Shown piece by piece: positions 2,204-33,419 of a DNA stretch of 64,000 nucleotides. How positions within the stretch are numbered: position 1 is the first letter of the stretch; each line of letters opens with the position of its first letter. This stretch comes from Candidatus Limnocylindrus sp. Lineage in GTDB: Bacteria; Chloroflexota; Limnocylindria; Limnocylindrales; Limnocylindraceae. Location of the stretch: contig JBBAWM010000003.1 in the NCBI GenBank assembly GCA_040397175.1, positions 147,599-211,598 of the forward strand, written 5' to 3'. The notes below the pieces were generated by a model. The model saw only the letters and a list, made by a program, of their open reading frames with translations. It was not told the origin of the DNA and made no database searches. Position numbers and translations under genes: made by a program.

Positions 2204-3096
2204 GGTTGTGGATCGTCCCAGATTGGATAGAAGAGCGTCCACCACTGTTCGGGAGCCTTGCTAATCAGCTCTTCGAATGCTGCGGCAACGCCCGAAAGCG
2301 CCACCCTCGTTCGCTCCATACGATCGCCGCGTTCTGGAATGCTCACCTGTCGAATGTAGCCCGTGTATCGACCCCCTGATTCACGAATCACCGCCGCCAC
2401 GAACAGCCGCGCGTTACTCTCTACGGCTAGCAGCCCTGGGCCGATCGGCAAGCGAGCGGGTGCTCCGAAGAGTGAGACAGGCACTCCACGCCCAACGATG
2501 TTTCGATCTCCGACAACGCCGACGATGCCCCCAGCGGCAAGTTCTGCGGCCATTGCTGCAGCGGCTCCCTGGGCCGGAATGATGCGCAGTCCGAGGCCCT
2601 CGCCACGAACGCGCAACATCCACCGCTGCAGTACCGGGTTGCGTAGCTCTTCCATTGGTGCGACTGGCCGCATGCCACTCCTGTCGGCGAGGATGCTGCC
2701 AGGAAGCTCGATCGCGCCGAAGTGTGCGGCGAGAAAGATCGCGCCACTCTTCCCGCGAACAAAAGCTTCGCGGACCGCCTCTTCGCTCTCAAGGCTCACG
2801 CGAGTTGCAATGATCGTTCGCGCATGTCGCGGCGCTCGTGCGGTTTCAATGTAGAAGCGTAGGTGATGTTCAAAGAGCAGCTGCACGCCGCGATCGAGCG
2901 CTCCCTTCGCCGGTGCTGTGCCGTCACGATACGTATAGACGCGAGCCAGGTTCTTTCGTGCGATTGCTGCGCGCTCGCGCAAGAGCCACGGACCGATATG
3001 CCCCCAGGCACGTGCGATCGACACCAAGATCGTTTCAGGGAGGCGAGAGATGAGCGACAGCATGCCAATGATGAGGTATCCAACGGCACTGCTCAC
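2200..3096 (-). CDS. Lysophospholipid acyltransferase family protein (LpxL/HtrB/PatA-like)
   Basis: 298-aa ORF with the LPLAT/HtrB-like pattern (FLAAHFGAIE...; GVVGDRNIVGRG). ATGA-type overlaps with both neighbours. In mycobacteria the PatA acyltransferase sits between pgsA1 and pimA. Confidence 0.7.
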   Translation of the reverse strand: MSSAVGYLIIGMLSLISRLPETILVSIARAWGHIGPWLLRERAAIARKNLARVYTYRDGTAPAKGALDRGVQLLFEHHLRFYIETARAPRHARTIIATRVSLESEEAVREAFVRGKSGAIFLAAHFGAIELPGSILADRSGMRPVAPMEELRNPVLQRWMLRVRGEGLGLRIIPAQGAAAAMAAELAAGGIVGVVGDRNIVGRGVPVSLFGAPARLPIGPGLLAVESNARLFVAAVIRESGGRYTGYIRQVSIPERGDRMERTRVALSGVAAAFEELISKAPEQWWTLFYPIWDDPQP

Positions 3097-4151
3097 GTTG
3101 CGTTCCCGATTCCGCGGCGTGTTGTCTCATGCGCCATCTGCGCTGCGACATCGGCAAGCTCGCGCTGCTTGGCAGCATTGGGCCAGAGTGGCTTGAAGCA
3201 GTTCCACTGCAGCGGTTCGGTGCGGATGAGCGCCTCCATCGCGGTTGCCGTCTCTTGCGTTGCACGAAGCTGAGAGGCTGGAGACCCGTCGCCAACGGTA
3301 ATTGGCGTGCCGAAGAGGATGCGGAACGATCCCGGAGCGTCGCGGCGAACGAAGAATGGCACGATCGGCGCGTTACCGCGTGCACTCAGCACCGCCGGGC
3401 CGCTCGGCAGGGTTGTCCAGCGACCGAAGAGTTGGCAGGGAATGCCGTCGGGCTTATAACCCCAGTCGCTGAGTAGCACGATGACGCCGCCGCGCTTCAT
3501 GGCGCCGAATACTTCGCGAATCGCCTTCCAGTCGATTACCTTGATCCCCCACGATGCACGGAGGCGACGCAGGAGCTCATACATCTCTGGAAACGCGCTG
3601 TCATCCGCAACAACGTTGACATCGTATTGTTTCTCTCCGAGTGCGGCGGCGCCGAGCTCATTGTTCCCAGCGTGGAACCCAACAAAGATCGCCGCTTGTC
3701 CGCGTGCGCGAAAATCGTCCATCAGTGTTGTTTGGGTGAGGTCTACCTCGGTGGCAATCTCAGCGAGCGACCGGCTCGGCAGCCGCAGTAGCTCTGCGGC
3801 ATAGCGTCCGTAGCTGCGGTAGTTGGCCAGGGCTCGCGCGCGAACGAGCCTTTCACTCCCTGGAAGTGGTCGCCCATCCGCATCGGCTACCCCGAGCACC
3901 ACCGCGGCGTTGCCATCGGCGATGCGCCGCTTGGCCGGCCAGAGGAGATAGGCGAGGGGCGCTACGGCGGAGAAGAGCGTCTCCGTGGGGCGTGGGGGGA
4001 GGAGCCCGATGACTCCCATCAGAAGGCGATAGCCGGCGTAGACGCTGCGCTCCCAGGCGCGGCGGGCGAGATAGCCAGGGGTGCGCTTTGGCACCTGGCG
4101 ACGGAGCGGCGAGGGGGTGGCTGCCCCCTGGGGCGGCTGTGGTTCGCTCAT
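3093..4151 (-). CDS. Second lysophospholipid acyltransferase family protein (LpxL/HtrB/PatA-like paralog)
   Basis: 352-aa ORF with the same LPLAT pattern (FVGFHAGNNELG; VLLSDWGYKPDG). Tandem with the previous acyltransferase, 4-nt overlap. Confidence 0.7.
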   Translation of the reverse strand: MSEPQPPQGAATPSPLRRQVPKRTPGYLARRAWERSVYAGYRLLMGVIGLLPPRPTETLFSAVAPLAYLLWPAKRRIADGNAAVVLGVADADGRPLPGSERLVRARALANYRSYGRYAAELLRLPSRSLAEIATEVDLTQTTLMDDFRARGQAAIFVGFHAGNNELGAAALGEKQYDVNVVADDSAFPEMYELLRRLRASWGIKVIDWKAIREVFGAMKRGGVIVLLSDWGYKPDGIPCQLFGRWTTLPSGPAVLSARGNAPIVPFFVRRDAPGSFRILFGTPITVGDGSPASQLRATQETATAMEALIRTEPLQWNCFKPLWPNAAKQRELADVAAQMAHETTRRGIGNAT

Positions 4152-4252
4152 TTGGGGAGTGTAGGGGAGAGCCGCCGCCCCCTTGCGGGGTGCGACGGCT
4201 CTCTCCAGTGTGAAGGCGGGACCGGCCGAGGCCAGCCTCTTAGCGGAAACGC

Positions 4253-5470
4253 TTAGGCGCGAACGGAGTTCAGCGACTCGGAGGTGGGGTACCCCTCCTT
4301 GGTCACCTGGGTTCCGTCGAGGACGCGATTGTCCTCACCGCGAATGAAGGCCTCGACTGCGGCGTGAGCGACATCGTCGCGCAGCTGCACTGGTGGGCTC
4401 TTCATGAAGTACGACGACGGCGCAACGAGCGTCCCCGCCAACTTGCGATCAAGGCCGAGCTTCGCGCAGCGAATAGCGTCCGTGATGACGCCGGCGCTGT
4501 TTGGCGAATCCCACACCTCGAGCTTCAGCTCCGCCGTAAGTGGCACGCCGCCGAAGGTTGTTCCTTCGAGGCGAATGTTTGCCCACTTTCGGTCAAGGAG
4601 CCACGGCACGAAGTCCGACGGCCCAACGTGCACCTGGTTGTCACCAAGCTGCTCGTCGAGGATCGAGGTGACTGCGTTGGTCTTGCTGATCTTCTTGCTC
4701 TCCAGTCGATCGCGCTCCAACATGTTCTGGAAGTCGGTGTTGCCACCGAAGTTCAGCTGATAGGTGCGGTCGAGCTGCACGCCACGATCGGCGAAGAGTC
4801 GAGCAAGAACGCGGTGCGCAATCGTTGCGCCCACCTGGCTCTTGATGTCGTCTCCGACGATTGGCAGGCCCGCTGCGGCAAACTTCTTCTGCCACTCTGG
4901 CTCACGACCAATGAAGACTGGAATTGCGTTCACAAACGCACATCCGGCCTTGATCGCCTGCTCAGCGTAGTAGCGAATTCCCTCTTCGCTGCCGACCGGA
5001 AGGTAGGCAACGAGCACGTCAACCTTGCGCTCCTTGAGCACGGCGGCAACGTCCACAGGCTTCTCTGGCGACTCGATCACCACGTCCTTGAGGTACTTGC
5101 CGATGCCGTCGAGCGTTGGTCCACGCTGAACGATCACGCCGGTGGTTGGGATCTCCTGGAAGGTCCAGGTGTTGTTTGGCTCTGCGCCAAGCGCAACCGA
5201 GAGATCCTTGCCAACCTTGGTGACGTTGACGTCGAACGCCGCAACGTAATCAAGATCGCGTACGTGATAGCCACCAATGTCGACGTGCATCAGTCCTGGG
5301 ACCTTTGCATCATTCGCCACGTCGGCGTAGAAGTAGCGGCCCTGCACCAAGCTGCTGGCGCAGTTGCCGACGCCCGCGATTGCGACGCGGATCGGATTCG
5401 TTGCCTTGATCGGCGTCTTAGGCGCCGGTCGGGCGTTCCATTGGGCGCGAGGCCCGTTCATCTCTACCAT
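4253..5470 (-). CDS. ino1: myo-inositol-1-phosphate synthase
   Basis: Strong MIPS signature ([16 protein letters not shown] Rossmann/NAD motif, conserved core through the C-terminus). The listed ORF (to 5809) has a 113-aa low-complexity N-terminal extension overlapping the upstream gene. I place the start at ATG 5470 (MVEMNG...), which is preceded by AGAAAGGGG. Confidence 0.85.
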
Positions 5471-5591
5471 TTTTCCTGTTACCCCTTTCTCTGTCGCCTT
5501 CGCGACCTTTCCGCTTTGCGAGCTCACACCTGTGAGTCCGCCTTCACTAACCGCCCGTTTCACGCCAGGCGGCGAGCATTCATTTGGCGCG

Positions 5592-6278
5592 CTATGCGCG
5601 GCGCCTTGCCGTTGCCAACGCGGCGCGAATAAACAGAATTCGCTGCAACACGGTGACGGCTGAGAGTGCGACGATGATGAGGAGCGCATAGAGCAGGTAA
5701 CTCCGCTCGCCGGTGAGGCCGGCGGAGAGCAGGCCGAGGATGAGGAGCGCCGCGCGCTCGGCGCGTTGCGCGATGCCACCATGTGCCGAGACGCCGAGGC
5801 CCTCGCCACGCGCGCGCACGTAGCTCACGAGCGAGCCGATGCCGAGCGCCAGCGCAGCGGCAGTCCCGATCTGAACGTCACCGAGAACTGCGGCGCTGTA
5901 GACGATTCCGGCGTAGATCGCCGCCTCTGCGGCGCGGTCGAGCGAAGAGTCGAAGAAGGCGCCGAATGAAGTGACGCGATTCGTTGCGCGAGCGAGTGTG
6001 CCATCAAGGCCATCGAAGAGCGTGCCAGCGATGAGGATGCCCGCTGCGATCGTCCAGTTGCCAAGGGCGACCTGCGCCGTTGCGATCAACACGATGCCAA
6101 AACCAACAAGGGTGAGCGCGTCGGGCGAGAAGCCGATCCGCCCGAGCAGCAGCGCGATCGGCTCACCGATGCGCTTGATCTTGCTGCGCTCCGTGGTGGT
6201 GAGGAGGCTCCCCTCCGTCACACGCTTACCGCTGGTGCGCTTACCGCTGGTGCGCTTCGTGATCGTGCGCTTGGCCAC
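5592..6278 (-). CDS. CDP-alcohol phosphatidyltransferase (phosphatidylinositol-phosphate synthase-like, PgsA1-type)
   Basis: DG(x2)AR(x8)G(x3)D(x3)D motif ([10 protein letters not shown]...GAFFDSSLD) and multiple TM helices. Adjacent to ino1. Contains a 15-bp tandem duplication encoding [10 protein letters not shown]. Confidence 0.8.
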
Positions 6279-6800: not shown

Positions 6801-8240
6801 CTACTTGGCGAGGGCCTGAACGACCGCCTCGATGATCGGGGTTGGAGCGAGTCCGAGGGCCACCGTGCCAACGGCGGCGAGCAGCAGGCCAGCGCGCAGC
6901 ATTGGCCCCTCGGCCACCTGGATTGCGGGCTCCGCTGGGTCGCGCATGAAGAGATAGACGATGACGCGCAGGTAGTAGAAGGCGGCGATCGCCGCGTTGA
7001 GGACTGCGATCACGGCGAGGATCGTGGCCGGCCCGCCCGCCTGTACCGCGGCCAAGATGACGTAGGTCTTGGCGAAGAAGCCAGCCGTCGGCGGAATGCC
7101 GGTGAGGCTCAACAAGAAGATCGTTGCCAGGAGCGCCATGCGCGGATGCTTGCGGCCGAGGCCCGCGAGATCCGAGAGCTGCGTGGTTGCGCCCGGTCGG
7201 CCCTGTAGCGCGGTGAGGAACGCAAAGGCGCCAAGATTCATGAAGGCGTACGCCGCAGTGTAGAAAAGCACACCAGCAATTCCTGCAGCTTGGCCTGCGC
7301 CAGCGGCGACGATGCCCACCATCAGATAGCCGGTGTGTGCGATCGATGAGTAGGCGAGCATGCGCTTCACGTTGCTCTGCGTGAGGGCTACGAGATTGCC
7401 AAGCGTCATCGTTGCCGCAGCCAGCACCACCATCACGGGAATCCAAAGTGCGGCGAGTGGCGCTAGGGCAATCACGAACAGTTTAATGAGGAGTACGAAC
7501 GCACCAACCTTCGGTCCAACCGAGAGGTAGCCGGTGATAGGCGTTGGCGAACCTTGGTAGGCGTCTGGTGTCCAGTAGTGAAACGGCACCGCTGCAATCT
7601 TGAACGCCGAGCCGGTGGTGATCAGCGCGAGCGCGACAGCGAGGCCAGCACTTGCGTTGCCCGATGCCAGCGTCGTTGCAATGCCGCTGAGGGAAGCGGT
7701 CCCCGCAACGCCCCAGAGCACCACGATGCCGAAAAGGAGGATGGCGCTGGAGAAGCTGCCGAGGAGAAAGTATTTCACCGCACCTTCGGTACTGAGTGGA
7801 TCACGCTTTGCGTATCCAGCAAGAACGTAACCCGGGATCACCATCAGTTCCAAGCCCACAAAAAGCGTGACGAGGTCGGTCGCGGCGCCAAGCAGAATGG
7901 CGCCAGCAAGGGCGAAGAGGAGCGTTGCGGCAAGTTCGGCAGTTGGATACTTGCGCACCGCCAGATACGCCGGCGCAATCAACAACGTGATCGCAACGAT
8001 CGAGATTCCGAGGAGACCGAGGAATGCGACGAAGGGCCCCGCAACATAACTGCCGCCTAGCGCACTCGCGCTGCTGCCGCCCTGATTAATGAGCAGTGCG
8101 GCAGTTGCGCCGAGTGCGGCAAGCGCGACGGCAACTGGCGCGTGATTACGATTCGGTGTGATCATGTCGCTCACCAACACCGCCATGGCGCCAACGATCA
8201 CGGTGATCAGTGGCGTAAGGGTGAGGAGGTCGTTGTTCAT
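6801..8240 (-). CDS. nuoN: NADH-quinone oxidoreductase subunit N
   Basis: 479-aa polytopic antiporter-like subunit; position and sequence typical of NuoN. Confidence 0.9.
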   Translation of the reverse strand: MNNDLLTLTPLITVIVGAMAVLVSDMITPNRNHAPVAVALAALGATAALLINQGGSSASALGGSYVAGPFVAFLGLLGISIVAITLLIAPAYLAVRKYPTAELAATLLFALAGAILLGAATDLVTLFVGLELMVIPGYVLAGYAKRDPLSTEGAVKYFLLGSFSSAILLFGIVVLWGVAGTASLSGIATTLASGNASAGLAVALALITTGSAFKIAAVPFHYWTPDAYQGSPTPITGYLSVGPKVGAFVLLIKLFVIALAPLAALWIPVMVVLAAATMTLGNLVALTQSNVKRMLAYSSIAHTGYLMVGIVAAGAGQAAGIAGVLFYTAAYAFMNLGAFAFLTALQGRPGATTQLSDLAGLGRKHPRMALLATIFLLSLTGIPPTAGFFAKTYVILAAVQAGGPATILAVIAVLNAAIAAFYYLRVIVYLFMRDPAEPAIQVAEGPMLRAGLLLAAVGTVALGLAPTPIIEAVVQALAK

Positions 8241-9748
8241 TGTCCCACCGTACTAATTGCTGACATGAGGAACGTTTGCACGCTCTGTGCAAACAAACTC
8301 GTCAGGATCGTTGGCATGACGCCAAAGACAACGATCATCGCAGCGAGTGGCGCAAGGGTGAGGATCTCGGTTGGTGTGACATCGGTGAGGTGTGAACCGA
8401 GCCCCTTCAAGAACGGCGAGAGTGGGCCAGTGAAGACGCGCTGGTACATATAGAGCAGATAAACAGCGGCAAGGATCATGACGAAGGTAGCGGCGCCAGC
8501 CACCATTGGATTGGCGATGAATGCACCGAGAAGCACCAGGAACTCGCCGGCAAATCCGGAGAGACCAGGTAGGCCAACGGAGGCGAAGAGGAAGAAGCCG
8601 AAGAGTGCCGCGTAGACGGGAGTGCGCACCGCCCAGCCGCCCATCTTCGCGATCTCGCGATCGTGTGTGCGCTCATAACCGATTCCGACGAGCAAGAAGA
8701 GTCCGCTCGTAATCAATCCATGGTTGAGCATCTGCAGGATTGCTCCGTCAACGCCCTGCTGGTTGAAGGTGAAGATGCCGAGTGTGACGAAGCCCATGTG
8801 GCTTACCGAGCTGTAGGCGATGAGCTTCTTTAGGTCGGTCTGCACGATCGCCACGAGCGCGCCGTAGATGATGGCGATCACCGACAGAACGATCATGAGT
8901 GGCGCAAAGAGGTGCGCGCCATCGGGGAAGAGCGGGATCGCGAAGCGAATGAATCCGTAGCCGCCAAGCTTCAGCAGCACGCCGGCGAGGATCACCGAAC
9001 CTGCGGTAGGGGCCTGCACGTGGGCGTCGGGGAGCCAGGTGTGGAACGGGAACATCGGCACCTTAATGGCGAAGGCGAGCGCGAATGCCGCGAATCCGAG
9101 GATCTGCAGCGTTGGGTCGACGATCGTGCCCCGCAGCGCGATCAGGTCGAACGCTCCTGCCCACGAGCCGGTGACGGCCTGGTGGCTGAATGCGGTAGCC
9201 AGGATCGCCACGAGCATGAGGAGTGAACCGACAAGCGTGTAGAGGACGAACTTGATCGTCGCGTAGATGCGGTCGGCGCCGCCCCAGATGCCGATGATCA
9301 GATACATCGGAACGAGAACGATCTCCCAGAAGATATAGAAGAGGAAGAGGTCGAGCGACAAGAAGACGCCGAGCATGCCAGTTTCGAGGATCAGGAAGCT
9401 AATGAAGTACTCCTTCACGCGCGTCTGAATTGGCCCGAAGCTCGCAAGGATGCAGATCCAGCTGAGCAGTGTCGTCAAGACGACGAGCGCGCCAGAGAGC
9501 CCATCCACGCCAAGGTGATACGTGATGCCGAACGACGGAATCCACGAAAGCTGCTCGCTGAAGGCGAACTCGCCACCTTGTGCGCGAATTCCCAGCAGCA
9601 TACCGAGACTCAACACAAAGGTGACAAGCGAAGTAGCCAATGCGGCGAAGCGGACCACGCTCGGTCGCGATGACGGCAGTAGTGCGATGCCGAGCGCACC
9701 GAGGAGGGGCACGAAGATGATCAACGAAAGGATCGGCACGCCACTCAT
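8237..9748 (-). CDS. nuoM: NADH-quinone oxidoreductase subunit M
   Basis: 503-aa antiporter-like subunit, 4-nt overlap with nuoN. Confidence 0.9.
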   Translation of the reverse strand: MSGVPILSLIIFVPLLGALGIALLPSSRPSVVRFAALATSLVTFVLSLGMLLGIRAQGGEFAFSEQLSWIPSFGITYHLGVDGLSGALVVLTTLLSWICILASFGPIQTRVKEYFISFLILETGMLGVFLSLDLFLFYIFWEIVLVPMYLIIGIWGGADRIYATIKFVLYTLVGSLLMLVAILATAFSHQAVTGSWAGAFDLIALRGTIVDPTLQILGFAAFALAFAIKVPMFPFHTWLPDAHVQAPTAGSVILAGVLLKLGGYGFIRFAIPLFPDGAHLFAPLMIVLSVIAIIYGALVAIVQTDLKKLIAYSSVSHMGFVTLGIFTFNQQGVDGAILQMLNHGLITSGLFLLVGIGYERTHDREIAKMGGWAVRTPVYAALFGFFLFASVGLPGLSGFAGEFLVLLGAFIANPMVAGAATFVMILAAVYLLYMYQRVFTGPLSPFLKGLGSHLTDVTPTEILTLAPLAAMIVVFGVMPTILTSLFAQSVQTFLMSAISTVGQ

Positions 9749-24713: not shown

Positions 24714-25127
24714 ATGTTTCGTTGGCCTTGGGAGTATCTCTTCACCGTCCTGAACGCCGATCTTGGAACGTTCTACACACCGTTCTGGATTGCAAACCTC
24801 GTGCTCTTCCTTGCAACGATCCTGGTCTACTCGTTCGCGACCCGCGGCAGCCGCGGCCGTGGGGTCATCGGCGACGAGTGGGAGTACATCCTGTGGATCA
24901 GCCTCGGCACCTTTGGAATGAACCTGGTCTACGCCGCGTTCCAGTGGTACGGCCTCTTCCCCATTGCGACCACCCTCGTTGGGCTCCTCGCCCTCCGCGA
25001 TACCGTCACGAAGCGCTTCCCCCCACTCCTCGCCGCGGAGGCTGATCATGCCGCACTCCTGCGCACGCGTCGCCAGGTGGCCGACGGTGTTGAGGCGACC
25101 ATTCGCCCAGCCAACCGTCGCGGATAG
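24714..25127 (+). CDS. Hypothetical small membrane protein (3-4 predicted TM helices)
   Basis: 137-aa ORF with GAGGA 5 nt upstream of the ATG and hydrophobic segments; divergent from the purH-like gene; no recognisable family. Confidence 0.4.
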   Translation: MFRWPWEYLFTVLNADLGTFYTPFWIANLVLFLATILVYSFATRGSRGRGVIGDEWEYILWISLGTFGMNLVYAAFQWYGLFPIATTLVGLLALRDTVTKRFPPLLAAEADHAALLRTRRQVADGVEATIRPANRRG

Positions 25128-25136
25128 CCCTTTAGT

Positions 25137-25544
25137 GTGCGCAGCTGCGCACGGCACGAGTGCATGAACATCCGCAGGTTTGGCCCCGGCCATCGTCGTG
25201 CAGACCGCGCTGCGGGCTCACAAGGCGTTCTCAGTAGCGCGATCTTCTCGAACGACGTTGCGCAAATTACGGAATTCACCGTCACGCCCGGTGGCACGTA
25301 CGGCCCACTTCGTAGTGCTGGTGATGTGGTTCTCGTCGTGATTGAGGGGGGCGGCTGGATCACCGCGCGTGAAACGCAGGTGCATCTTGCCGCCGGTGAG
25401 TCGCTGCACCTTGAACGACTAACGCCCTATAGCGTGGCGGCTCGTGAGTTGCCGCTACGCGCGATCCTCATCGAACTTACTTCGCACGACCTTGCCGAGC
25501 CGGCTCGCACCATAGGCGCCAGCGGCGGCGGCGAGCAGGAGTAG
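25137..25544 (+). CDS. Hypothetical cupin-like small protein
   Basis: 135-aa ORF 9 nt downstream of the preceding ORF. The central segment (GGTYGPLRSAGDVVLVVIEGGGWITARETQVHLAAGESLHL) resembles a cupin beta-barrel. Its 3' end overlaps the convergent giant GT-C gene by 90 nt, so start and reality are uncertain. Confidence 0.35.
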   Translation: MRSCARHECMNIRRFGPGHRRADRAAGSQGVLSSAIFSNDVAQITEFTVTPGGTYGPLRSAGDVVLVVIEGGGWITARETQVHLAAGESLHLERLTPYSVAARELPLRAILIELTSHDLAEPARTIGASGGGEQE

Positions 25545-28500
25545 CGCACCAACGACGAGCGTCGCGCTACTGACGAGCGCGGTTTCGCCGGGCTTCTCGA
25601 GCGTGACTCCAAATTGGAATGGCCATGTCCATGTTGGCAATACGCCCTGATACCAATTGTGTATGCCGGTAGGGAGTGGCAGCGCCGACCAATTCGGATA
25701 CCAGATGAGTGCGATAGTGGCGATGCTACCGAGTGCGACGGCGAAGATGCGACGTGGGTCACGTGCGCTGAGGATGGACCATGCCGCCACCGTTGCAGGC
25801 ACGAGCGCAATCGCGCCGATGAGTGGGCCCGGTGTGCCAAATCCTCCAGAGAGACAGACCTGACTCTCGGGATACACGCTGGCGACACCTGCGAGTGCGC
25901 AGAGTGCACCTGTTCCCATCCAGAGCACCGGCGCAGCGAGGACCGCGCAAGCCCCACCAACCCTCACGATGTGCGCAGCGCGCGGCGATCCTGCACGTAG
26001 ATCGGCCAACAGAAGGGCGAGCCCTATCAGTGCAATCTGTGATGTTGGGTAGTAGTGATATTGGAATGCGGCACGATCGATACGCGCCCACGGTAGCCAA
26101 AGGGCAAGTCCGAGCACGAGGACCGAGGTGAGGCCCCAGCTTCTTCGGCGCCACGCTTCTGCTGCAAGCCAGAGCGCGCCGCCAATGCTGAGGATGCGCG
26201 AGAGCACGTTCCCGCCGTCATACACCGCGGCGGTCCAGGAGCCGCCACCGGCGGCAAAACTCGATTGGAAGAACCAGACCGGCTTTAAGTCGAGTGGCCA
26301 CGCCCACCAGGGTGAGCTGGCGGCATGCGCAACGCGAAGGGTGTCGTGATAGCGATACATCGACGACGTGAGGTCGGCGAGCGTCTGCCCCGCGTTGCCG
26401 ATCGGCCACCCCGCAACGATCTGGTTGCCGAGCGCGGCCCACGGCAGGTAGCTCGCGATATAGATACCAACAGGGAGAGCCGCGAGCGTAAAGAAGACGA
26501 GTGTTGCCTCACCTGGAAGGGAGAGGAGGGCGAGAAGCGAGCGTGGCGTTGCATCGCGTCGCGAGATGCCGCCGGCGCGAACGGTGGCGGCTCCCGTCGC
26601 CGCGAGGAGGACCACCATGACAGCGAAAAACGGCAGGTTTGGGATACGTGTGGAGCCGTCGACGACCGCGAGTGCCGGCGGAATTAAGGCGCCACCGAGC
26701 AGGGCGAGCCCACCCACAACCAAGAGTCGCCCGGGCGCCGTCCGCGCGAGCCACATGATTCCGAGACCGAAAATGCCGTAGAGGGCCACCCACTTGCTCG
26801 CAAGGGCACCGCCGAGCAGAAGTCCAGCGCCGATGAGAAGGAGCCCCCCAAGAAGGGCGCCGCGCACGCGGCCCTGGAGCCACGCCACGAAGGCGACCGC
26901 GCCGCCGAGTAAGAGGGCAAGAAGGTACACATCGTTCATGCCGATACGGCTCTGCACGAACCCCGCACCATCCAGGAGGGCGAGCACGCCGACCAAGGCA
27001 GCGACGTCGCGGCGCTCAGTGAGGAGTCGCGCCAAGAGAACCAAGAGGGCTGCGGCGAGCGCGCCAGCGATCACCCCTGGCCAGCGCCAGCCGGCCGCAA
27101 GGTCACCAACGTTCACCTGCGCCATTGCGCCCGATGGCGCGGCGAGTAGCAGCTCTCCGCTGCCACCATCTGCGCGTTCGCCAGAACCATCAAGTGCCGC
27201 ACCGCTCGAACCGAGTGTCAGCGCATCGATTCCCACCGCGACATCAGCAAAACGCGCGTTGCCGTTGGGCTCTATGGTCCACAGCGATGCGCCGGCATCG
27301 TTCGGTCCAGGTGCCACCACGTGCACCATGCGGCTCGCGTCGCTCGGCACGATCGCCGTGGCACCCGGAATGGTGATCTGCGAAAGCAGGGTCGTGCTCT
27401 CGCCCCCAGCGACATAGACAAGCACCGCGTCACGCCCCGCAACATAGAGGCGAGGCGCGTCGAACCAGCTAACAGCGACAACAGCGCCTGCTCCTCCGTC
27501 AATCGACAGGAGTTGCGGGCGAGACAAGTCGTGCGCCGCATAGCTCGTGAGGCCAGCGCTACTCGTGACGAACAACACCTCGTCACCCTTTACCGTCACT
27601 GCAACAGCAGTTGAGCCACCGGTAAGCGGCGCGCTTGAGAGCAGAACCCCGTCACGAAGGATCTCAACTCGATCACGTCGAACGAGTGCGACACGATCGT
27701 CAGCCAGCGGCGCAATGCCGTACACCGCACCTCCTGTGGACGCCCAGGTGCGTAGGCCAATCGCACCGCCCGCTGTTGCCGTTTCTGGGTCAACTGAAAA
27801 GATCGTGCCGTCTCCCGTCGCCCCCCAAAGAGCACCGTCGTGCGCTGCAACAAGGTGCAAGACGTCGCGCACTGGGAGCGCGCCGACCACCGCTCGACTT
27901 GACGCATCAATCACGCTGATCTCGTTGGGACCCGCAATCCATATCCGCCCTGGGTAGCGCGCACCTTCGGGCCGTGCGGCGATTGCGCCAATACTCGTTG
28001 GGTATGTCGTGTGCGCATCGACGCGCGGGGCGCCGAACACTTCAATTCCAAGGGCGATGAGGTACTTCGCGAGATGTGGATGTGTGTATTCGTAGATCGC
28101 ATGCGGTTCGCCGTACTTCCAATCTTGCATGAACTCTGTTGCGGTACGCACGTGATACACCTCATCAAACTGGAAGTGTGTCGGTTCACCAACACGCCAT
28201 CCACGGAGCGAGAGTGCGCTAATGGTCACGAGAACCAATAGCCAGAGGTCTATCCGCGTTAGTGCTCGGCGGGGTTCGGGCTTCGCTGCAACAACCCGTC
28301 TCGGCACGGCGTCCACTCGTTTGCGTTGCGGTGCGGCTGTTCGCTGGCGCCCGCTTCGCGATTCGGACGTGTGTGCCAGCCATACGGCACCAACCAGCGT
28401 TGCAGTGATCGCAGCGGCAACGAGCGTCACGGCGACTGGTGTGTGCAGCGCATCGGTAATGGCGCCGAGGTTTGGAAGACCCTCGTTCTGAAAGTAGGCG

Positions 28501-29639
28501 ATGGTGAGTACACCCCAACTATTGGCTAGGAAGGCGAGAGAGGTTGCGAGCGCAATCCAGCGCCAGGCGGGTCGAGCTGCGGCCAGCGCGATCGTGAGAG
28601 GAATTGCGGGGAAGAGATATCGCTCGTGCACGCGCGTCGGGAGGACAAAGAATGCAATGGCGAGGATTGCGGCCGCGGTCACGGTTCGAAGCGCGGTGTC
28701 GCGTCGCACGTATCGCATGGCAGCAAGGACGGCGGCGGCGATTGCGGCGGTGCCGATTGCCACACCGGGGATGCCGATCAGCGGGAGCGGGTCGACGTCG
28801 GATGCCCACCCAGTTGCATCAGCGACTGCTCGTCCTCCGACCGCGACGAGTGCCCACGGGTTCCACGCATTCACCGAGAGGTACGGATAGCCGCCGGCCG
28901 CCTCAGCGATCTTGGTTAATACGTCGGGGAGCGTGAGTCCAAACGGTAGAGCGGCGATGGCGATGGTGGCTGCACCAGCGAGACCCGCGACAACGAAGGC
29001 CCATGGTTCGCGCGCCGATCGCGCCCGCACGAAGGCGACGACGCCAATGATCGGAATCAAGATGCCGAACTGCGGCTTCAGCACCGCAGCGAGGGCGGCG
29101 AGGATCGCACCCTGAACGGTCTTACCCCTGATGAGTGCTGAGAGCGCAAAGAGGATGGTGACCGTTCCAACGGCGTCAACTTGCCCCCACACGGCCGAGT
29201 CGAGCCAAACCATCGGTCCGATCGCCATCACAACCGCGGCGACGAGCTGGCTTCGGCGCGATGCGCCCAAATCGGCGGCGAGCCGGACGGTTGCAAGCAC
29301 GAGCAGCCCATCCGCAAGGATTGCTGGAAGCTTGATTAGTGCCCCTGGGTCAGTGCTACCGGTCACGAGTGCGCTCAGCGAACCGAGCGCCCAGAGGATC
29401 CATAAGTAACCGGGGAGATAGTCCACATAGATTCCCCGCGTGTAGAAGCCCCACGGCCCTCGGCTCGCTAATTCAGAGGCCCACGCTCGGAATGAGTGTA
29501 GGTCTGCGCTAAATCCTGCCTCTGGGGGGAGTGCCGCGTATGCGATGATCAGCCGCAAGAGAACGCCGAGCGCAGCGATCAGCGCAATTGTGCGGAGGTT
29601 GACCGGTTCGGCTGATCGACGGGTCGTCTGAGAGGTCAT
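25455..29639 (-). CDS. Giant polytopic GT-C glycosyltransferase: two tandem PMT/ArnT-like (GT39/GT83-type) modules with a ~300-aa beta-propeller-like soluble insertion
   Basis: 1394 aa. N-terminal module (aa 1-470) has an ArnT/PMT_2-like loop-1 region (SADLHSFRAWAS...YVDYLPGYLWILW...KPQFGILIP) and many TM helices. The second module begins with a canonical PMT motif (FDEVYHVRTATEF...EPHAIYEYTHPHLAKYLIALG), then a soluble repeat-rich region (aa ~560-850), then more than 12 further TM helices to the C-terminus. Confidence 0.75.
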   Translation of the reverse strand: MTSQTTRRSAEPVNLRTIALIAALGVLLRLIIAYAALPPEAGFSADLHSFRAWASELASRGPWGFYTRGIYVDYLPGYLWILWALGSLSALVTGSTDPGALIKLPAILADGLLVLATVRLAADLGASRRSQLVAAVVMAIGPMVWLDSAVWGQVDAVGTVTILFALSALIRGKTVQGAILAALAAVLKPQFGILIPIIGVVAFVRARSAREPWAFVVAGLAGAATIAIAALPFGLTLPDVLTKIAEAAGGYPYLSVNAWNPWALVAVGGRAVADATGWASDVDPLPLIGIPGVAIGTAAIAAAVLAAMRYVRRDTALRTVTAAAILAIAFFVLPTRVHERYLFPAIPLTIALAAARPAWRWIALATSLAFLANSWGVLTIAYFQNEGLPNLGAITDALHTPVAVTLVAAAITATLVGAVWLAHTSESRSGRQRTAAPQRKRVDAVPRRVVAAKPEPRRALTRIDLWLLVLVTISALSLRGWRVGEPTHFQFDEVYHVRTATEFMQDWKYGEPHAIYEYTHPHLAKYLIALGIEVFGAPRVDAHTTYPTSIGAIAARPEGARYPGRIWIAGPNEISVIDASSRAVVGALPVRDVLHLVAAHDGALWGATGDGTIFSVDPETATAGGAIGLRTWASTGGAVYGIAPLADDRVALVRRDRVEILRDGVLLSSAPLTGGSTAVAVTVKGDEVLFVTSSAGLTSYAAHDLSRPQLLSIDGGAGAVVAVSWFDAPRLYVAGRDAVLVYVAGGESTTLLSQITIPGATAIVPSDASRMVHVVAPGPNDAGASLWTIEPNGNARFADVAVGIDALTLGSSGAALDGSGERADGGSGELLLAAPSGAMAQVNVGDLAAGWRWPGVIAGALAAALLVLLARLLTERRDVAALVGVLALLDGAGFVQSRIGMNDVYLLALLLGGAVAFVAWLQGRVRGALLGGLLLIGAGLLLGGALASKWVALYGIFGLGIMWLARTAPGRLLVVGGLALLGGALIPPALAVVDGSTRIPNLPFFAVMVVLLAATGAATVRAGGISRRDATPRSLLALLSLPGEATLVFFTLAALPVGIYIASYLPWAALGNQIVAGWPIGNAGQTLADLTSSMYRYHDTLRVAHAASSPWWAWPLDLKPVWFFQSSFAAGGGSWTAAVYDGGNVLSRILSIGGALWLAAEAWRRRSWGLTSVLVLGLALWLPWARIDRAAFQYHYYPTSQIALIGLALLLADLRAGSPRAAHIVRVGGACAVLAAPVLWMGTGALCALAGVASVYPESQVCLSGGFGTPGPLIGAIALVPATVAAWSILSARDPRRIFAVALGSIATIALIWYPNWSALPLPTGIHNWYQGVLPTWTWPFQFGVTLEKPGETALVSSATLVVGALLLLAAAAGAYGASRLGKVVRSKFDEDRA

Positions 29640-29673
29640 CTGCCGAGTGTAGCCGTGAAGGGGGTTGCGGAAG

Positions 29674-30423
29674 GTGCCACTGCCAGAGCTCTCCCTCTTC
29701 TTCCCGTGTCATAACGAGGCCGATAACCTTGATGCACTGGTTGCCGATGCACTTGTCGCACTACCTGCCCTCGCAACTACCTATGAGGTCATTCTTGTCG
29801 ACGATGGCTCGCACGACGATACAGCCCGCGTGGCCGGTCGCCTCGTAGAGCGACATGGCAGGCTCGTTCGTTTGATACGCCATGAGGTCAATCGCGGATA
29901 CGGCGGCGCGCTGCGCTCGGGCTTTGCGGCGGCACGGTACGCCAATCTCGCCTATACCGATGGGGACCGTCAGTTCCGTGTGGCTGATCTTGCACGACTC
30001 GTCGAGTGCGCCGAGGCTACCGACTCACCCGTAGTGATCGGGTATCGACTGCAGCGCGCCGATCCGCCACTGCGCCTCATCTATGCCACGTTCTACCGTA
30101 TTGCGAATCGTATCTGGTTCGGACTGCGCGTCCGCGACGTTGACTGCGCCGCGAAGCTCTTTCGTCGTGATGCGCTGCAGGGAATCAGCGTCCACTCTGA
30201 CGGAGCATTTTTCTCTGCAGAGCTTCTCATTCGCCTGCGCGTTGCTGGAGTAACGATCGACGAGGTTGGTGTGCCGCATTATCCGCGTACCGCCGGATCG
30301 CCAACCGGTGCGCGTCTCTCGGTGATCGCGCGAGCGATTCGCGACTTCTGGTCGCTGCGGATTGGCCTTTGGGTGAACCGTGCTCAAACGCTTTCGCGGG
30401 GTCGCGCCCTGTTGGGCGATTAG
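29674..30423 (+). CDS. GT2 family glycosyltransferase, polyprenyl-phosphate mannose (PPM/DPM1-like) synthase candidate
   Basis: DPM1/Ppm1-like pattern (LSLFFPCHNEADNL; EVILVDDGSHDDT; NRGYGGALRSGF; YTDGDRQF; DVDCAAKLFRR). Divergent from the giant GT-C gene. I favour the GTG start at 29674 (GAAGGGGG 10 nt upstream); the ORF track lists TTG at 29665. Confidence 0.7.
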   Translation: MPLPELSLFFPCHNEADNLDALVADALVALPALATTYEVILVDDGSHDDTARVAGRLVERHGRLVRLIRHEVNRGYGGALRSGFAAARYANLAYTDGDRQFRVADLARLVECAEATDSPVVIGYRLQRADPPLRLIYATFYRIANRIWFGLRVRDVDCAAKLFRRDALQGISVHSDGAFFSAELLIRLRVAGVTIDEVGVPHYPRTAGSPTGARLSVIARAIRDFWSLRIGLWVNRAQTLSRGRALLGD

Positions 30424-30932: not shown

Positions 30933-33419
30933 TTACGGTGTGGGAATCGGCGTCTCAATGATCGGATCAGGGGTTGGCCCAACGCTCGCGCCAGGCTCCT
31001 GTGTCACTGGCACGCCGAGTACGGCGCTGCGAACGCGTCCCGCTTCCGCCCAGATAAACGTCGGCGCGCCGCCGTCGGCGGCGGGGAGGATGTATCCGCC
31101 AAGGATCTCGCCGACGGGATCAGCCCCATCGCCAATGACGTACTGCGCGAGCATCGCGCCAGACGTCGCCTTGGTGTACGCGATCACTCGATGGGCGCTG
31201 CTGTCCCAGACATAGATGACCCCCGTTCGGCTCGCCCCTGCGGACATCACCAGCGTTGGGGTTAGGAGGGGGCGGAGAAGCTCGTCACCGATATCGGCTG
31301 GGGCCCAATCGTCTGGCGCCCCGCCGGAGTAGCGGCGCAGGGTGCCGGCGCTCGTCATGTACACATCGCCGTCGATGGCGATGCTGGTCATGGTGCCCAG
31401 TGACATCGGGTTGATTAGATACGCCGTTGGAGTCGCGGGGTAGCCCGTTCCGTCAGGGGCCGGCTGGTATCGCAAAATCTGCCGAGCAGATGGGTCGACC
31501 ACATAGAGCCGATAGAGCCCGGTCCCTGGATCTGCCGCGAATCCGACGATCGCCCTCACGTCGCTCCCCCAGAGTTCGCCGTCGCGAACCCGGAGCTTCA
31601 CCAACGTCCCCTTACCAGCCTTGTCGGAGGGGCGCCAGCGCCAAAGGTTCGACGAGGCGTCAAACACCACAAGGTCGGGCCCTGCGGCGGTCAGCAGGAG
31701 TGCGCGCCCGGTGCGCGTGCCGTAGAGATCAAATCCTGGCTGATACACCACGGTTGCTCGACCGAGACCAGCATCAATCCGATACACCGCGCCTGTCACC
31801 TTGTCGATGACATACGGCAGACCGTCTGGCCCCTGAACCAGCGCCTGGATCTCAACACTTGCGCCCGCCGCTTGGAAGTCGAAGAGTGTGATTGGGGTGG
31901 TGACGCTGACAAGGAAGATCTTATTCAGTGTCTCTGTTGCCTCTGCGCGGAGCGACGTGATCTGGGCGATCGACCCGCCACCGGCCTCTGCAAGGTTGAG
32001 GTTTGCGACGGCGGCTAGTAGGAGGCTCTTCACCCGTGATGGATCGTTGACGAGAAGGTTGGTTTGGGGGTCGAGCGCCTCGGTAATGCTGATCTCTGCG
32101 CTTCGTAACGCCTCGCGTGCCTTCGCCACAGCGTCCAACTCTGGCGCAGTCCCGTTTAGCACCAGCGCTGTTGCGCCACCAACGCCCGCAATAAGGACCG
32201 CAGCCAAGAGGAGTGCCGCCGAGCGGCGTCGGCGCAGACGTTGTACCTCGTGTTCCGCCTGTTCGTCGCCGCCCTTCGCTGCGCGAAGCGTTGGTTCGGC
32301 TGGGGTGATGGTTAACCAGGGTGCACGGCGTTCAATCTCATTGGCGACGCGCGCAACAACCCGCTGCAACAACGATGTTGAGGTTGCTGCGCGTTCACGC
32401 CACGACCGCTCTACCAGTGGCTCGGCCACACTGCGGTGTTCTGCTCGCAGTCGCGCCTCCGCGCGCGCAGTCTCTTGTGCGGCTCGCACCGCATCGCTCG
32501 TGCGCTGATCGCGCGCGAGTGGCGGCTGGCTCTTCCCTCGCGCGCGCGCCTCCGCTCCACTTCGCGCGCTTGGGCGACGTGCGTCGATAACCGCTTGTGC
32601 CGCTGTGTCGATCGGTTCGTATGGTGGCGTGTGTGCATCCGGTCGGTTCGGGTCGGCTTTCGGCGCAACTGGTTTTGCAGCAGAGATCCTCGCCTCGCGC
32701 TCAAGGTTCCCCTCTTCCCAGCGTGCGCGCGCGTTGACCTTTGCCGCTGCAACCGGGTCAACAGGAACGTTGAAGAGCGTCTCCGCCTCGGGCATTGCTC
32801 GCGAAAGCGTGGTTCGCACTGGCAGGAGCACCTCGAGGAGCACCGCCGGATAGGCGAGTGGCGCGAACGAACCGCTCGCAGGCGTGTGCGTTTTTACTGC
32901 AAGCTTCGCCTCTTCTGGCGTAGCTGCCAACGCAACACGGTCGCCCGGCCCCATCGCGAGTCGCGTCGTGGAAATGCCACCGCGCTCGAGCGTGCGTGAG
33001 GCCGCACCAGGTGCTTCGTCGGGCAACATGATTGTTGTTATGCGGCCATCTGTTGTTCGACGCGCAGCAACCGCCACGCCGCTCGTGCGCGCAACGAGTA
33101 CCTCGCTGCGCGAGAGCGCGACGAGCCCAACCGCAACACTCTCACCAAGCCGTTTTTGTGCCGCGCTGAGCGCGCGGCGCGCCCGCTCGGCGGGACTCGC
33201 TGAGGCATCGTTGTCAAAGAGGTCCAACGTTTCGGTTGCGGCTCTCTGGAGCTGTTCCGCCGTAGCGCCAGTGAGGCGGATGAGTGCGGCGCGTGTGCCG
33301 AGCATGCGCTCTTCAGACGGCCCCTTCGGTGTGCGCGCGAGTAGAAGCCAGCCCGCGCCAAACGCCGGTTCGGCCGCTGTGAGTACCGCGGGGTGAATGG
33401 TTTGCTCTGCGTGGTCCAT
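30933..33419 (-). CDS. Large membrane-anchored protein: N-terminal PP2C-like (probably degenerate) domain, Arg/Ala-rich linker, single TM, C-terminal beta-propeller-like domain
   Basis: 828 aa. The N-terminal ~190 aa show a PP2C-like pattern (GLVALSRSEVLVARTSGVAVAARRTTDG...MGPGDRVALAT) without clear metal-binding Asp residues. One hydrophobic helix (SAALLLAAVLIAGVGGATALVL). The C-terminal ~420 aa are repeat-like beta-strand-rich sequence. Confidence 0.55.
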   Translation of the reverse strand: MDHAEQTIHPAVLTAAEPAFGAGWLLLARTPKGPSEERMLGTRAALIRLTGATAEQLQRAATETLDLFDNDASASPAERARRALSAAQKRLGESVAVGLVALSRSEVLVARTSGVAVAARRTTDGRITTIMLPDEAPGAASRTLERGGISTTRLAMGPGDRVALAATPEEAKLAVKTHTPASGSFAPLAYPAVLLEVLLPVRTTLSRAMPEAETLFNVPVDPVAAAKVNARARWEEGNLEREARISAAKPVAPKADPNRPDAHTPPYEPIDTAAQAVIDARRPSARSGAEARARGKSQPPLARDQRTSDAVRAAQETARAEARLRAEHRSVAEPLVERSWRERAATSTSLLQRVVARVANEIERRAPWLTITPAEPTLRAAKGGDEQAEHEVQRLRRRRSAALLLAAVLIAGVGGATALVLNGTAPELDAVAKAREALRSAEISITEALDPQTNLLVNDPSRVKSLLLAAVANLNLAEAGGGSIAQITSLRAEATETLNKIFLVSVTTPITLFDFQAAGASVEIQALVQGPDGLPYVIDKVTGAVYRIDAGLGRATVVYQPGFDLYGTRTGRALLLTAAGPDLVVFDASSNLWRWRPSDKAGKGTLVKLRVRDGELWGSDVRAIVGFAADPGTGLYRLYVVDPSARQILRYQPAPDGTGYPATPTAYLINPMSLGTMTSIAIDGDVYMTSAGTLRRYSGGAPDDWAPADIGDELLRPLLTPTLVMSAGASRTGVIYVWDSSAHRVIAYTKATSGAMLAQYVIGDGADPVGEILGGYILPAADGGAPTFIWAEAGRVRSAVLGVPVTQEPGASVGPTPDPIIETPIPTP

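Follow-up and report, generated by a model that had tools for sequence, protein, structure and literature searches.

Eukaryotic protein O-mannosyltransferases (PMTs), the streptococcal Pgf system and a mycobacterial Pmt complex each resemble in part the locus analysed here. In eukaryotic PMTs the MIR domain, a β-trefoil, lies in the TM7–TM8 loop. The Pgf system consists of a GT2 enzyme, PgfS, and two GT-C enzymes, PgfM1 and PgfM2, both of which are fed by the GT2. The closest counterpart is mycobacterial: in a July 2026 preprint with partly prediction-based claims, Pmt (Rv1002c) co-purifies with a GT87-like protein (Rv0051/ML2687c) and with a periplasmic β-propeller (Rv3212/ML0810c) modelled above the active site, and the complex also contains the DivIVA-like Rv1209 (bioRxiv 10.64898/2026.07.15.738315). 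The GT87-like partner lacks catalytic residues and is described as non-catalytic. The same work reports GT39 enzymes fused to GT87 in Paenibacillus (UniProt V9WAU2). Residues shown to be essential in the Mycobacterium tuberculosis PMT are D74, D176 and, in the fifth external loop, R441-x2-Y444 (PMC12331936). PimE, of family GT87, elongates the O-mannose of mycobacterial glycoproteins (PMC12757957); its catalytic Asp, D58, is at the tip of JM1, while K195 and H322 hold the donor phosphate, and PimE, ALG6, ArnT and PglB are all classed as GT-C_A (PMC12041525).

The window, i.e., the whole stretch of 64,000 nucleotides of a Candidatus Limnocylindrus contig (Chloroflexota), encodes a protein that looks like the three mycobacterial-type parts in one chain. 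It comprises an N-terminal GT-C module (N-module), a linker, and a C-terminal PMT module in which a propeller is inserted (Table 1).

Table 1. Features of the fusion gene and of its divergent neighbour (positions in the window)
Feature	Position	Strand	Remarks
Whole fusion gene	25455..29639	-	1394 aa; stop codon 25455-25457; basis: ORF, full-length homologues, conserved fusion
N-terminal GT-C module, ALG6/GT87(PimE)-like	28368..29639	-	aa 1-424
Putative catalytic Asp46	29502-29504	-	N-module
DYLPGY	29406-29423	-	N-module
Lys188	29076-29078	-	N-module
RVHERY	28617-28634	-	N-module
Arg/Lys-rich linker	28266..28367	-	aa 425-458; probably cytoplasmic and flexible
PMT TM1 and first extracytoplasmic loop	28026..28265	-	aa 459-538
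Asp492-Glu493 motif	28161-28166	-	within FDEVYH, aa 491-496
HPHLAKY	28062-28082	-	aa 520-526
Seven-bladed β-propeller in PMT loop 1	27111..28025	-	aa 539-843; model and fold searches
PMT TM2 to C-terminus	25458..27110	-	aa 844-1394; includes MND903, SSPWWAWP, RIDRAAF
GT2 gene, likely polyprenyl-phosphate-sugar synthase	29665..30423	+	divergent; possible alternative GTG start 29674

Distribution and Integrity of the Fusion Gene

The fusion gene is uninterrupted from its ATG to its stop codon. Over 95–100% of its length, the protein is matched by more than 100 protein clusters, which agree with it in size (about 1380–1416 aa) and show 54–99% identity. Among the 82 related loci, which come from Limnocylindria MAGs throughout, the N-module and the PMT module share one stop-to-stop frame in 74 (66 complete, 8 truncated by a contig end). 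The modules are in different frames in three loci (L001, L050, and L070), and in another (L082) they are parted by an in-frame TAG that falls in the equivalent of the linker. In the split cases that were resolved (n = 4), the N-module and PMT genes are still direct neighbours; these four lie on very large contigs (0.3–1.2 Mb), which we suspect to be long-read assemblies, where indel errors are frequent.

The few split relatives are what one could invoke in favour of an artefact, i.e., of two or three ordinary genes merged by misassembly, by an overlooked stop codon or by a frameshift. The continuous frame in loci of independent assemblies and the constant length of the protein clusters make this exceedingly improbable, and for practical purposes it is already refuted. 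A chance reading frame or a chimeric assembly is likewise excluded, because conservation at the protein level spans dozens of independent assemblies. The 1394-aa fusion protein is real and conserved in freshwater Chloroflexota. The earlier note on this DNA, which had read the gene as an apparent fusion, is thus borne out by the shared frame, and the homologue search recovered the same fusion.

Two proteins appear to consist of PMT and propeller only. One of them (P0248, 1217 aa) has an N-module directly upstream in another frame, so that a frame change explains how gene calling arrived at this architecture; the second is P0247 (1223 aa). P0132, P0151, and P0143 look like stand-alone N-modules but are fragments of the fusion locus on very large contigs. 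P0204, at L085, is a true stand-alone relative; its neighbours are a PMT_2 GT-C gene and a flippase resembling GtrA.

The PMT Module and Its Propeller

The C-terminal module is a PMT (GT39) module on the evidence of sequences and profiles, because only propellers are among the matches listed in fold searches with this module. Pfam PMT (PF02366) reaches 40 bits, above its cut-off of 22.7 (E = 4.3e-10); the insert divides the match in two, and its best stretch is aa 851–965. PMT_4TMC (PF16192) is below its cut-off in the window protein (28.2 bits against 32.4, aa 1088–1214) and is given for most homologues in a precomputed Pfam list. A family profile matches Pmt4, Pmt1, and Pmt2 in the PDB across the DE loop, the TM block and the EL4 motif (E = 1.7e-6); its alignment with Pmt4 pairs FDEVYH with FDEV and also takes in the PMT_4TMC region. 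These structures, like ALG6, are reached only by family profiles, the PDB search with the single sequence giving no match.

Conservation is among the highest in the region of aa 459–538, where D492 and E493 do not vary in 36/36 homologues. These two residues of FDEVYH are placed immediately ahead of a helix of the model (aa 491–509), as the Asp-Glu motif of PMTs precedes helix HH1. Downstream, the SSPWWAWP motif and the β-hairpin after it occupy aa 1108–1140, RIDRAAF spans aa 1186–1192, and D903, R1189, and F1192 are invariant among homologues. D492/E493, D903 (in MND) and R1189-x2-F1192 resemble the essential residues of the M. tuberculosis enzyme, the equivalence of D903 and of R1189–F1192 being by pattern only. 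The module would probably transfer sugar in a manner dependent on Asp492–Glu493.

The insert is a 305-aa, all-β domain, with the next TM helix at about aa 847. The predicted structure and fold searches agree on a propeller of seven blades. It belongs to no detectable family and has no similarity to the neighbouring 828-aa protein; weak profile matches are with the propellers in hybrid two-component sensors of Bacteroides, domains that bind glycans. Because it is inserted into the same loop as the DE motif, the propeller should cover the PMT active site, a position that, like the packing of the two modules, is deduced from loop topology only.

The N-Terminal Module and the Linker

The model of the N-module has high confidence and an ALG6-like fold, with the putative catalytic Asp starting the first loop helix; its closest structural relatives are ALG6, ALG3, GPI-MT-I, PIG-U, and PimE. 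A family-profile alignment places D46 on the catalytic Asp of ALG6. D46, K188, and RVHERY are invariant in 33/33 fused homologues, at identities down to 38%, and at least 90% conserved across 70 homologues overall; H338 is also invariant. D46, K188, and H338 occur in the same sequence order as D58, K195, and H322 of PimE and match them in kind. The module may therefore be catalytically active. It differs from PimE (GT87) and ALG6 (GT57) in being covalently attached to a PMT and in remaining below threshold in both Pfam families: for ALG6/ALG8 (PF03155) the isolated module scores 23.7 bits and the full protein 20.4 against a gathering score of 25, and for GT87 (PF09594) the module is also below the gathering score.

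The linker that follows has 11 Lys/Arg in 34 residues, has pLDDT below 50 at residues 441–455, and is the least conserved region of the protein.

Hence, the picture drawn in the earlier note of two GT-C-fold modules in one polypeptide agrees with the profiles and models. This includes the PMT family of the second module with its loop-1 Asp-Glu, the quoted FDEVYH and HPHLAKY motifs, and the soluble repeat domain of about 300 aa in a loop other than that of MIR, which is the propeller preceding the next TM helix.

Genomic Context

The GT2 gene lies 25 bp upstream of the fusion gene in divergent orientation, and in 62 of the 63 loci having a GT2 match it likewise precedes the fusion gene on the other strand. 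Its product matches Pfam Glycos_transf_2 (E = 5e-22), and its PDB sequence matches are ArnC, the GtrB-like sll0501, and the Dol-P-Man synthase of Pyrococcus furiosus. NCBIfam matches to PpgS, ArnC, PgfS, and Dol-P-hexose transferase are all under cut-off, so that sugar specificity is not assignable from them, and mannose or another hexose is the presumed donor sugar. The GT2 likely supplies the lipid-linked donor to the fusion protein, and the polyprenyl-phosphate-sugar donor assumed earlier is plausible because this gene adjoins the fusion gene. Downstream of the fusion gene, a membrane ORF of 137 aa (24714-25127) lacks any Pfam match, and hence the surroundings of the gene yielded no GtrA-like flippase. 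A scan for promoters and terminators gave nothing exceeding shuffled expectation.

The window also contains, at 195-6278, a cluster resembling those for phosphatidylinositol mannosides (PIM): a GT4, a PHP protein, two acyltransferases, an inositol-1-phosphate synthase, and a PIP-synthase-like gene. Both acyltransferases have PIM acyltransferase as best NCBIfam match. The cluster is about 19 kb from the fusion gene, beyond the nuo genes; in about 35 Limnocylindrales loci it follows that gene downstream at a distance between a few hundred bases and about 1.7 kb.

Discussion

We give a probability of roughly 0.6 to the reading that this Limnocylindria bacterium has, in a single chain, a protein O-mannosyl (O-hexosyl) transferase machine, with the biochemical function and membrane topology predicted from its parts. 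The GT2 would load a sugar on polyprenyl phosphate at the cytoplasmic face, and the lipid-linked sugar would then be flipped. At the outer face, the PMT module would move it, by means of Asp492–Glu493, to Ser/Thr of exported proteins, the probable acceptors, which the propeller above the active site may select or present. The N-module, on its flexible cytoplasmic linker, would pack beside the PMT module as an obligatory GT-C partner. Because it retains the putative catalytic Asp/Lys/His set of ALG6 and PimE, it may also extend this first sugar by adding the next, as PimE does on mycobacterial mannoproteins. Two consecutive transfers by one enzyme are thus possible. The full version, in which both GT-C modules are active, the propeller capturing the exported protein, the PMT site attaching the initial sugar and the ALG6/GT87-like site the following one, both from lipid-linked donor made by the GT2, is a tentative proposal that we would not favour over its negation.

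The N-module could instead be a non-catalytic scaffold or acceptor recruiter within the same PMT holoenzyme, which would then carry out one glycosyl transfer only. This is a live alternative because the GT87-like partner ML2687c/Rv0051 acts non-catalytically in the mycobacterial complex, and a like role is given to Pmt2 in the yeast Pmt1–Pmt2 pair (both in bioRxiv 10.64898/2026.07.15.738315). We nevertheless regard it as quite improbable, since the invariance of D46, K188, and RVHERY is not what a dead enzyme would show. A further alternative concerns the acceptor. One or both modules might extend a PI-anchored, PIM- or lipomannan-like glycolipid in the outer leaflet from a polyprenyl-phosphate-sugar donor, in parallel with PimE and the Mpt enzymes of Actinobacteria, in which case the propeller would bind the growing glycan. 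The PIM-like cluster is beside the gene in relatives, so that a glycolipid acceptor would fit too; moreover, lipid-linked glycans are substrates or ligands of all the closest structural relatives of the N-module, and the weak matches of the propeller to the Bacteroides sensors point the same way. Yet the cluster is convergent and not co-transcribed with the fusion gene, in the window it is also distant, and its NCBIfam scores are below the equivalog cut-offs. The protein also keeps the elements specific to the PMT acceptor groove, namely the EL4 motif with its β-hairpin and the R-x2-F pattern, and to our knowledge the GT39 enzymes characterised so far all glycosylate proteins. Both this assembly of a lipoglycan and its extension to the propeller seem unlikely to us, if deserving of attention.

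Read as a protein O-glycosyltransferase, the window protein shares with the mycobacterial complex the association of a GT39 enzyme with a GT-C partner from the ALG6/GT87 side, here covalent or, in the resolved splits, adjacent. Both also have a β-propeller, which in the window protein is predicted from loop topology to lie at the PMT active site, the two propellers being compared by description. The three parts form one polypeptide in the window protein and separate proteins in mycobacteria; the propeller is a loop-1 insertion of seven predicted blades here and a separate membrane-anchored subunit of eight there; the N-module keeps putative catalytic residues that the mycobacterial partner lacks; and the hosts are Chloroflexota and Actinobacteria, respectively. 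V9WAU2 of Paenibacillus, compared by description only, likewise has PMT-family and GT87-family modules in one chain. The eukaryotic PMT dimers (yeast Pmt1–Pmt2, Pmt4) have in common with the window protein a PMT core with loop-1 Asp-Glu, a unit of two GT-Cs and a soluble cap. In the window protein, however, the partner belongs to a nonhomologous GT-C family and is no second PMT, a loop-1 β-propeller forms the cap instead of a luminal MIR domain, and identity to PMTs is low. Selecting or presenting acceptors, as suggested for the propeller, has also been proposed as the function of MIR domains and of the eight-bladed mycobacterial subunit. The streptococcal Pgf system, to judge from part of its description (bioRxiv 10.1101/2024.05.05.592596), also combines a GT2 lipid-sugar synthase with two GT-C enzymes and acts on Ser/Thr-rich extracytoplasmic protein regions, but its proteins are separate, its GT-Cs are of other families (PMT_2-type), and it has no propeller.

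Literature searches found no paper on Limnocylindria glycosylation, nothing on PI-mannosides in Chloroflexi or on fused GT-C enzymes beyond the papers cited, and nothing published on an actinobacteria-like envelope of glycolipids and glycoproteins in Limnocylindria, which the neighbouring inositol-lipid genes suggest.

Because gene fusions are strong independent evidence of joint function, this one supports the claim, at odds with the notion of a lone enzyme, that bacterial protein O-mannosyltransferases require both another GT-C protein as partner and a cap formed by a propeller. With this fusion, an organisation described for Actinobacteria reaches an abundant class of uncultured Chloroflexota from fresh water and soil, and the single-chain form is a potentially convenient cryo-EM target for the whole assembly. 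As the partner module keeps its putative catalytic residues, the fusion could reveal if O-mannose initiation is physically coupled to elongation; if both modules are active, the protein would be a self-contained O-glycosylation machine with two active sites. If the three-part assembly is indeed present in Chloroflexota (fused) and in Actinobacteria (separate), then the combination of a PMT, a second GT-C and a luminal cap would be ancient in Terrabacteria, and such an organisation might be the ancestral logic behind the eukaryotic PMT dimers with their MIR domains.

A Fusion Conserved throughout the Class

The giant gene starts at an ATG and is an uninterrupted ORF, in line with the 1394-aa protein described in the earlier note, which had also proposed searching for homologs with the same fusion. 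Such a search in 5.8 billion proteins finds more than 100 clusters of about 1380–1416 aa (95–100% query coverage, 54–99% identity), the named ones being from metagenome-assembled genomes (MAGs) of Candidatus Aquidulcis and Candidatus Limnocylindrus (class Limnocylindria, Chloroflexota). More distant relatives of 1700–1800 aa have the same layout. A scan with one genome per species gives at least 596 matching stretches, and the best 80 loci belong to Chloroflexota, with the exception of a few oddly labelled MAGs. When each module is mapped by tblastn onto 82 loci, the N-terminal module (N-module) and the C-terminal PMT module lie in one frame and one complete stop-to-stop ORF in 66 loci, and in eight more they share frame and ORF but are interrupted by a contig end. 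The modules are directly adjacent in separate ORFs in four loci, the N-module is absent from two, one arrangement (L064) is unclassified, and one locus has too little upstream sequence for judging the N-module. Hence, the fusion is real and conserved throughout the class.

Three of the four split loci (L001, L050, and L070) have a frame change, in L001 at about 7900–8000, and in L082 the modules are parted by a single in-frame TAG directly followed by GTG (9456–9461). All four lie on contigs of 0.3–1.2 Mb, and we suspect long-read assemblies, which are prone to indel errors. Either sequencing errors or naturally split genes may account for the interruptions.

A search with the isolated N-module does not list the fusions P0001–P0120 among its matches, despite their containing this module at up to 99% identity. 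The list therefore over-represents fragments, and stand-alone N-modules misleadingly seem many. P0204 is a true stand-alone relative (32% identity) from another organism (locus L085, 7001–13023). Its neighbors are a two-component system, a GtrA-like flippase gene, and a PMT_2/YkcB-type GT-C gene, the N-module's family being again paired with a second GT-C. The distant members P0111–P0120 and P0251–P0299 are far longer (1700–2390 aa), with extra, partly helical-looking sequence within the propeller region and added hydrophobic segments in the PMT module; locus L040 has a stop-to-stop ORF of 3237 codons.

Features of the window, of the giant protein, and of one related locus
Feature	Position	Strand	Remarks
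Phosphatidylinositol-mannoside (PIM)-like cluster	195–6278	minus	
GT4 glycosyltransferase	195–1379	minus	
PHP-domain protein	1376–2245	minus	
Acyltransferase	2200–3096	minus	best NCBIfam match PIM acyltransferase
Acyltransferase	3093–4151	minus	best NCBIfam match PIM acyltransferase
Inositol-1-phosphate synthase	4253–5809	minus	
PIP-synthase-like CDP-alcohol transferase	5592–6278	minus	
Giant gene	25455–29639	minus	1394 aa
Intergenic gap	29640–29673		
GT2 gene	29665–30423	plus	252 aa
Conserved 828-aa protein	30933–33419	minus	
recF, dnaN, dnaA	33773–37910	minus	
Polytopic membrane module (N-module)	aa 1–424		
Arg/Lys-rich linker	aa 425–458		11 K/R in 34 residues; low model confidence
One transmembrane helix and loop with two short helices	aa 459–538		FDEVYH (D492-E493) and HPHLAKY in loop
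Insert	aa 539–843		28 beta-strands
Remaining transmembrane helices	aa 844–1394		
Gap with TMEM260-like and ~480-aa genes	L001 3530–6539		also L044, L045, L048, and others

Two Modules of Different Families

The domains were delimited from the hydropathy profile and from two AlphaFold2 models. The positive-inside rule places the N-terminus and the linker probably in the cytoplasm, and the N-terminus of Mycobacterium tuberculosis PMT is cytosolic by experiment (PMC12331936). On this basis, the beta domain and the first loop of each module are expected on the outer side.

The C-terminal module matches Pfam PMT with 40 bits (cut-off 22.7), the match being split by the insert, and PMT_4TMC falls just under the Pfam threshold. 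Its family profile matches Pmt4 (E = 1.7e-6), Pmt1, and Pmt2, in alignments spanning the DE loop, a transmembrane block, and a motif conserved in external loop 4. Conservation within the module is highest in the two external loops, and D492/E493, D903 (MND), and R1189-x2-F1192 are invariant among aligned homologs. These resemble the essential D74, D176, and R441-x2-Y444 of the M. tuberculosis enzyme, and the model has a beta-hairpin after SSPWWAWP at the same place as that enzyme's EL4 hairpin (PMC12331936).

The earlier note had proposed two PMT/ArnT-type modules. Two GT-C modules are indeed present, the second being a PMT, but the first is from a different, ALG6/GT87-like family. Its comparison figures are 27.8 for yeast ALG6 (381 residues aligned), 27.1 for ALG3, 24.3 for GPI mannosyltransferase I, 23.0 for PIG-U, 20.9 for PimE, 18.0 for ArnT, and 17.0 for Pmt4. 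The Pfam scores are sub-threshold (Alg6_Alg8 23.7 bits and GT87 21.0 bits, both cut-offs 25), and no NCBIfam entry matches. A profile–profile comparison does not relate the N-module to the PMT core (best probability 7.5%, not colinear), ruling out that the modules are mutual duplicates or that the N-module is PMT/ArnT-type. Among PDB sequences, the sole match of its family profile is ALG6 (E = 0.008), with DYLPGY aligned onto LDYPPL, RVHERY onto QVHEKT, and D46 onto the Asp counted as D69, which we take to be the catalytic base. D46, D73, D110, K188, H338, E339, and R340 are invariant in 33/33 aligned proteins containing the module, down to 38% identity. They match in kind and order the base D58 of PimE and its donor-phosphate residues K195 and H322; in ALG6, the equivalent of D58 is likewise a catalytic Asp (PMC12041525).

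The insert, which has no Pfam family, gives weak profile matches to propeller sensors of Bacteroides hybrid two-component systems. It follows the second helix of loop 1 and precedes TM2, in the loop bearing the catalytic DE motif. It is the fastest-evolving region (22–71% identity), and the acidic E790, D799, and D817 of its last blades, adjoining TM2, are invariant.

Genomic Context

The GT2 gene is upstream of the giant gene and divergent from it in 62 of the 63 loci with a GT2 match. It resembles polyprenyl-phosphate glycosyltransferases (ArnC, GtrB-like sll0501, archaeal Dol-P-Man synthase, PpgS, and PgfS), and it is under every equivalog cut-off among its NCBIfam matches, so no sugar is assigned. 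The two genes are 25 bp apart, from the ATG to the TTG of the longest GT2 ORF, or 34 bp if GT2 starts at GTG 29674, about 9 nt past a GAAGGGGG stretch. A search for a sigma-70-like promoter there (29640–29673) was negative, a hint that the divergent transcripts are leaderless or overlap. In more distant Limnocylindrales the genes are 2–4.5 kb apart, and the gap commonly contains a TMEM260-like GT-C gene (Pfam E = 3.6e-22) and a gene for a roughly 480-aa membrane protein with no family match. Neither has a counterpart within the 64-kb window, and ancestrally the locus may have formed a larger island of GT-C glycosylation genes.

Beyond GT2 lie genes for a bifunctional nuclease and the 828-aa protein, then recF, dnaN, and dnaA, whose adjacency places the window probably near the chromosomal replication origin. 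The order recF, 828-aa protein, nuclease, GT2, giant gene is kept in the class. The 828-aa protein (28–88% identity), which adjoins the nuclease and GT2 genes class-wide, has no Pfam or NCBIfam match and no similarity to the insert. Its middle contains a hydrophobic segment, its C-terminal half looks repetitive, and its tail is rich in Pro and Thr; it might serve the glycosylation machinery as a partner or as a substrate. About 35 Limnocylindrales loci have the PIM-like cluster a short way downstream of the giant gene and convergent with it; a literature search found nothing on PI-mannosides in Chloroflexota.

Discussion

In mycobacteria, three proteins are reported to co-purify with Pmt: a GT87-family member without catalytic residues, modelled as a Pmt2-like heterodimer partner; a periplasmic eight-bladed beta-propeller, modelled directly over the active site and proposed to have a MIR-domain-like role; and a small DivIVA-like protein. 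In Paenibacillus, GT39 enzymes are fused to a GT87 enzyme (July 2026 preprint, bioRxiv 10.64898/2026.07.15.738315). Compared with the preprint's description, the giant protein most plausibly represents a fused version of this mycobacterial-type machine, with PMT, GT87/ALG6-like module, and propeller in one chain. It differs in host phylum, in its propeller, which is a loop-1 insert with seven predicted blades instead of a separate eight-bladed protein, and in its N-module, which keeps putative catalytic residues. The acceptor-recognition role that the earlier note suggested for the propeller now has a published parallel.

The preferred model, to which as a whole we give a probability of about 0.6, is that GT2 would make the lipid-linked donor, the PMT module would glycosylate Ser/Thr on exported proteins, the propeller would gate or present acceptors, and the N-module would be an obligatory partner, probably adding the next sugar. 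According to a 2025 review, PimE elongates O-mannose on mycobacterial glycoproteins, and other actinobacteria apparently do so with other GT87 members (PMC12757957). The N-module's relatives and the neighboring PIM-like cluster support a rival role in the assembly of PI-anchored lipoglycans, which we regard as unlikely. Slightly less likely still is an N-module that is purely a scaffold, as in mycobacteria, since its catalytic-type residues are invariant. That the fusion is an artefact is hardly credible.

The fusion is a variant of a recently described kind of complex, for which it provides independent evolutionary evidence. As a single chain, the giant protein could also be a target of structural studies.
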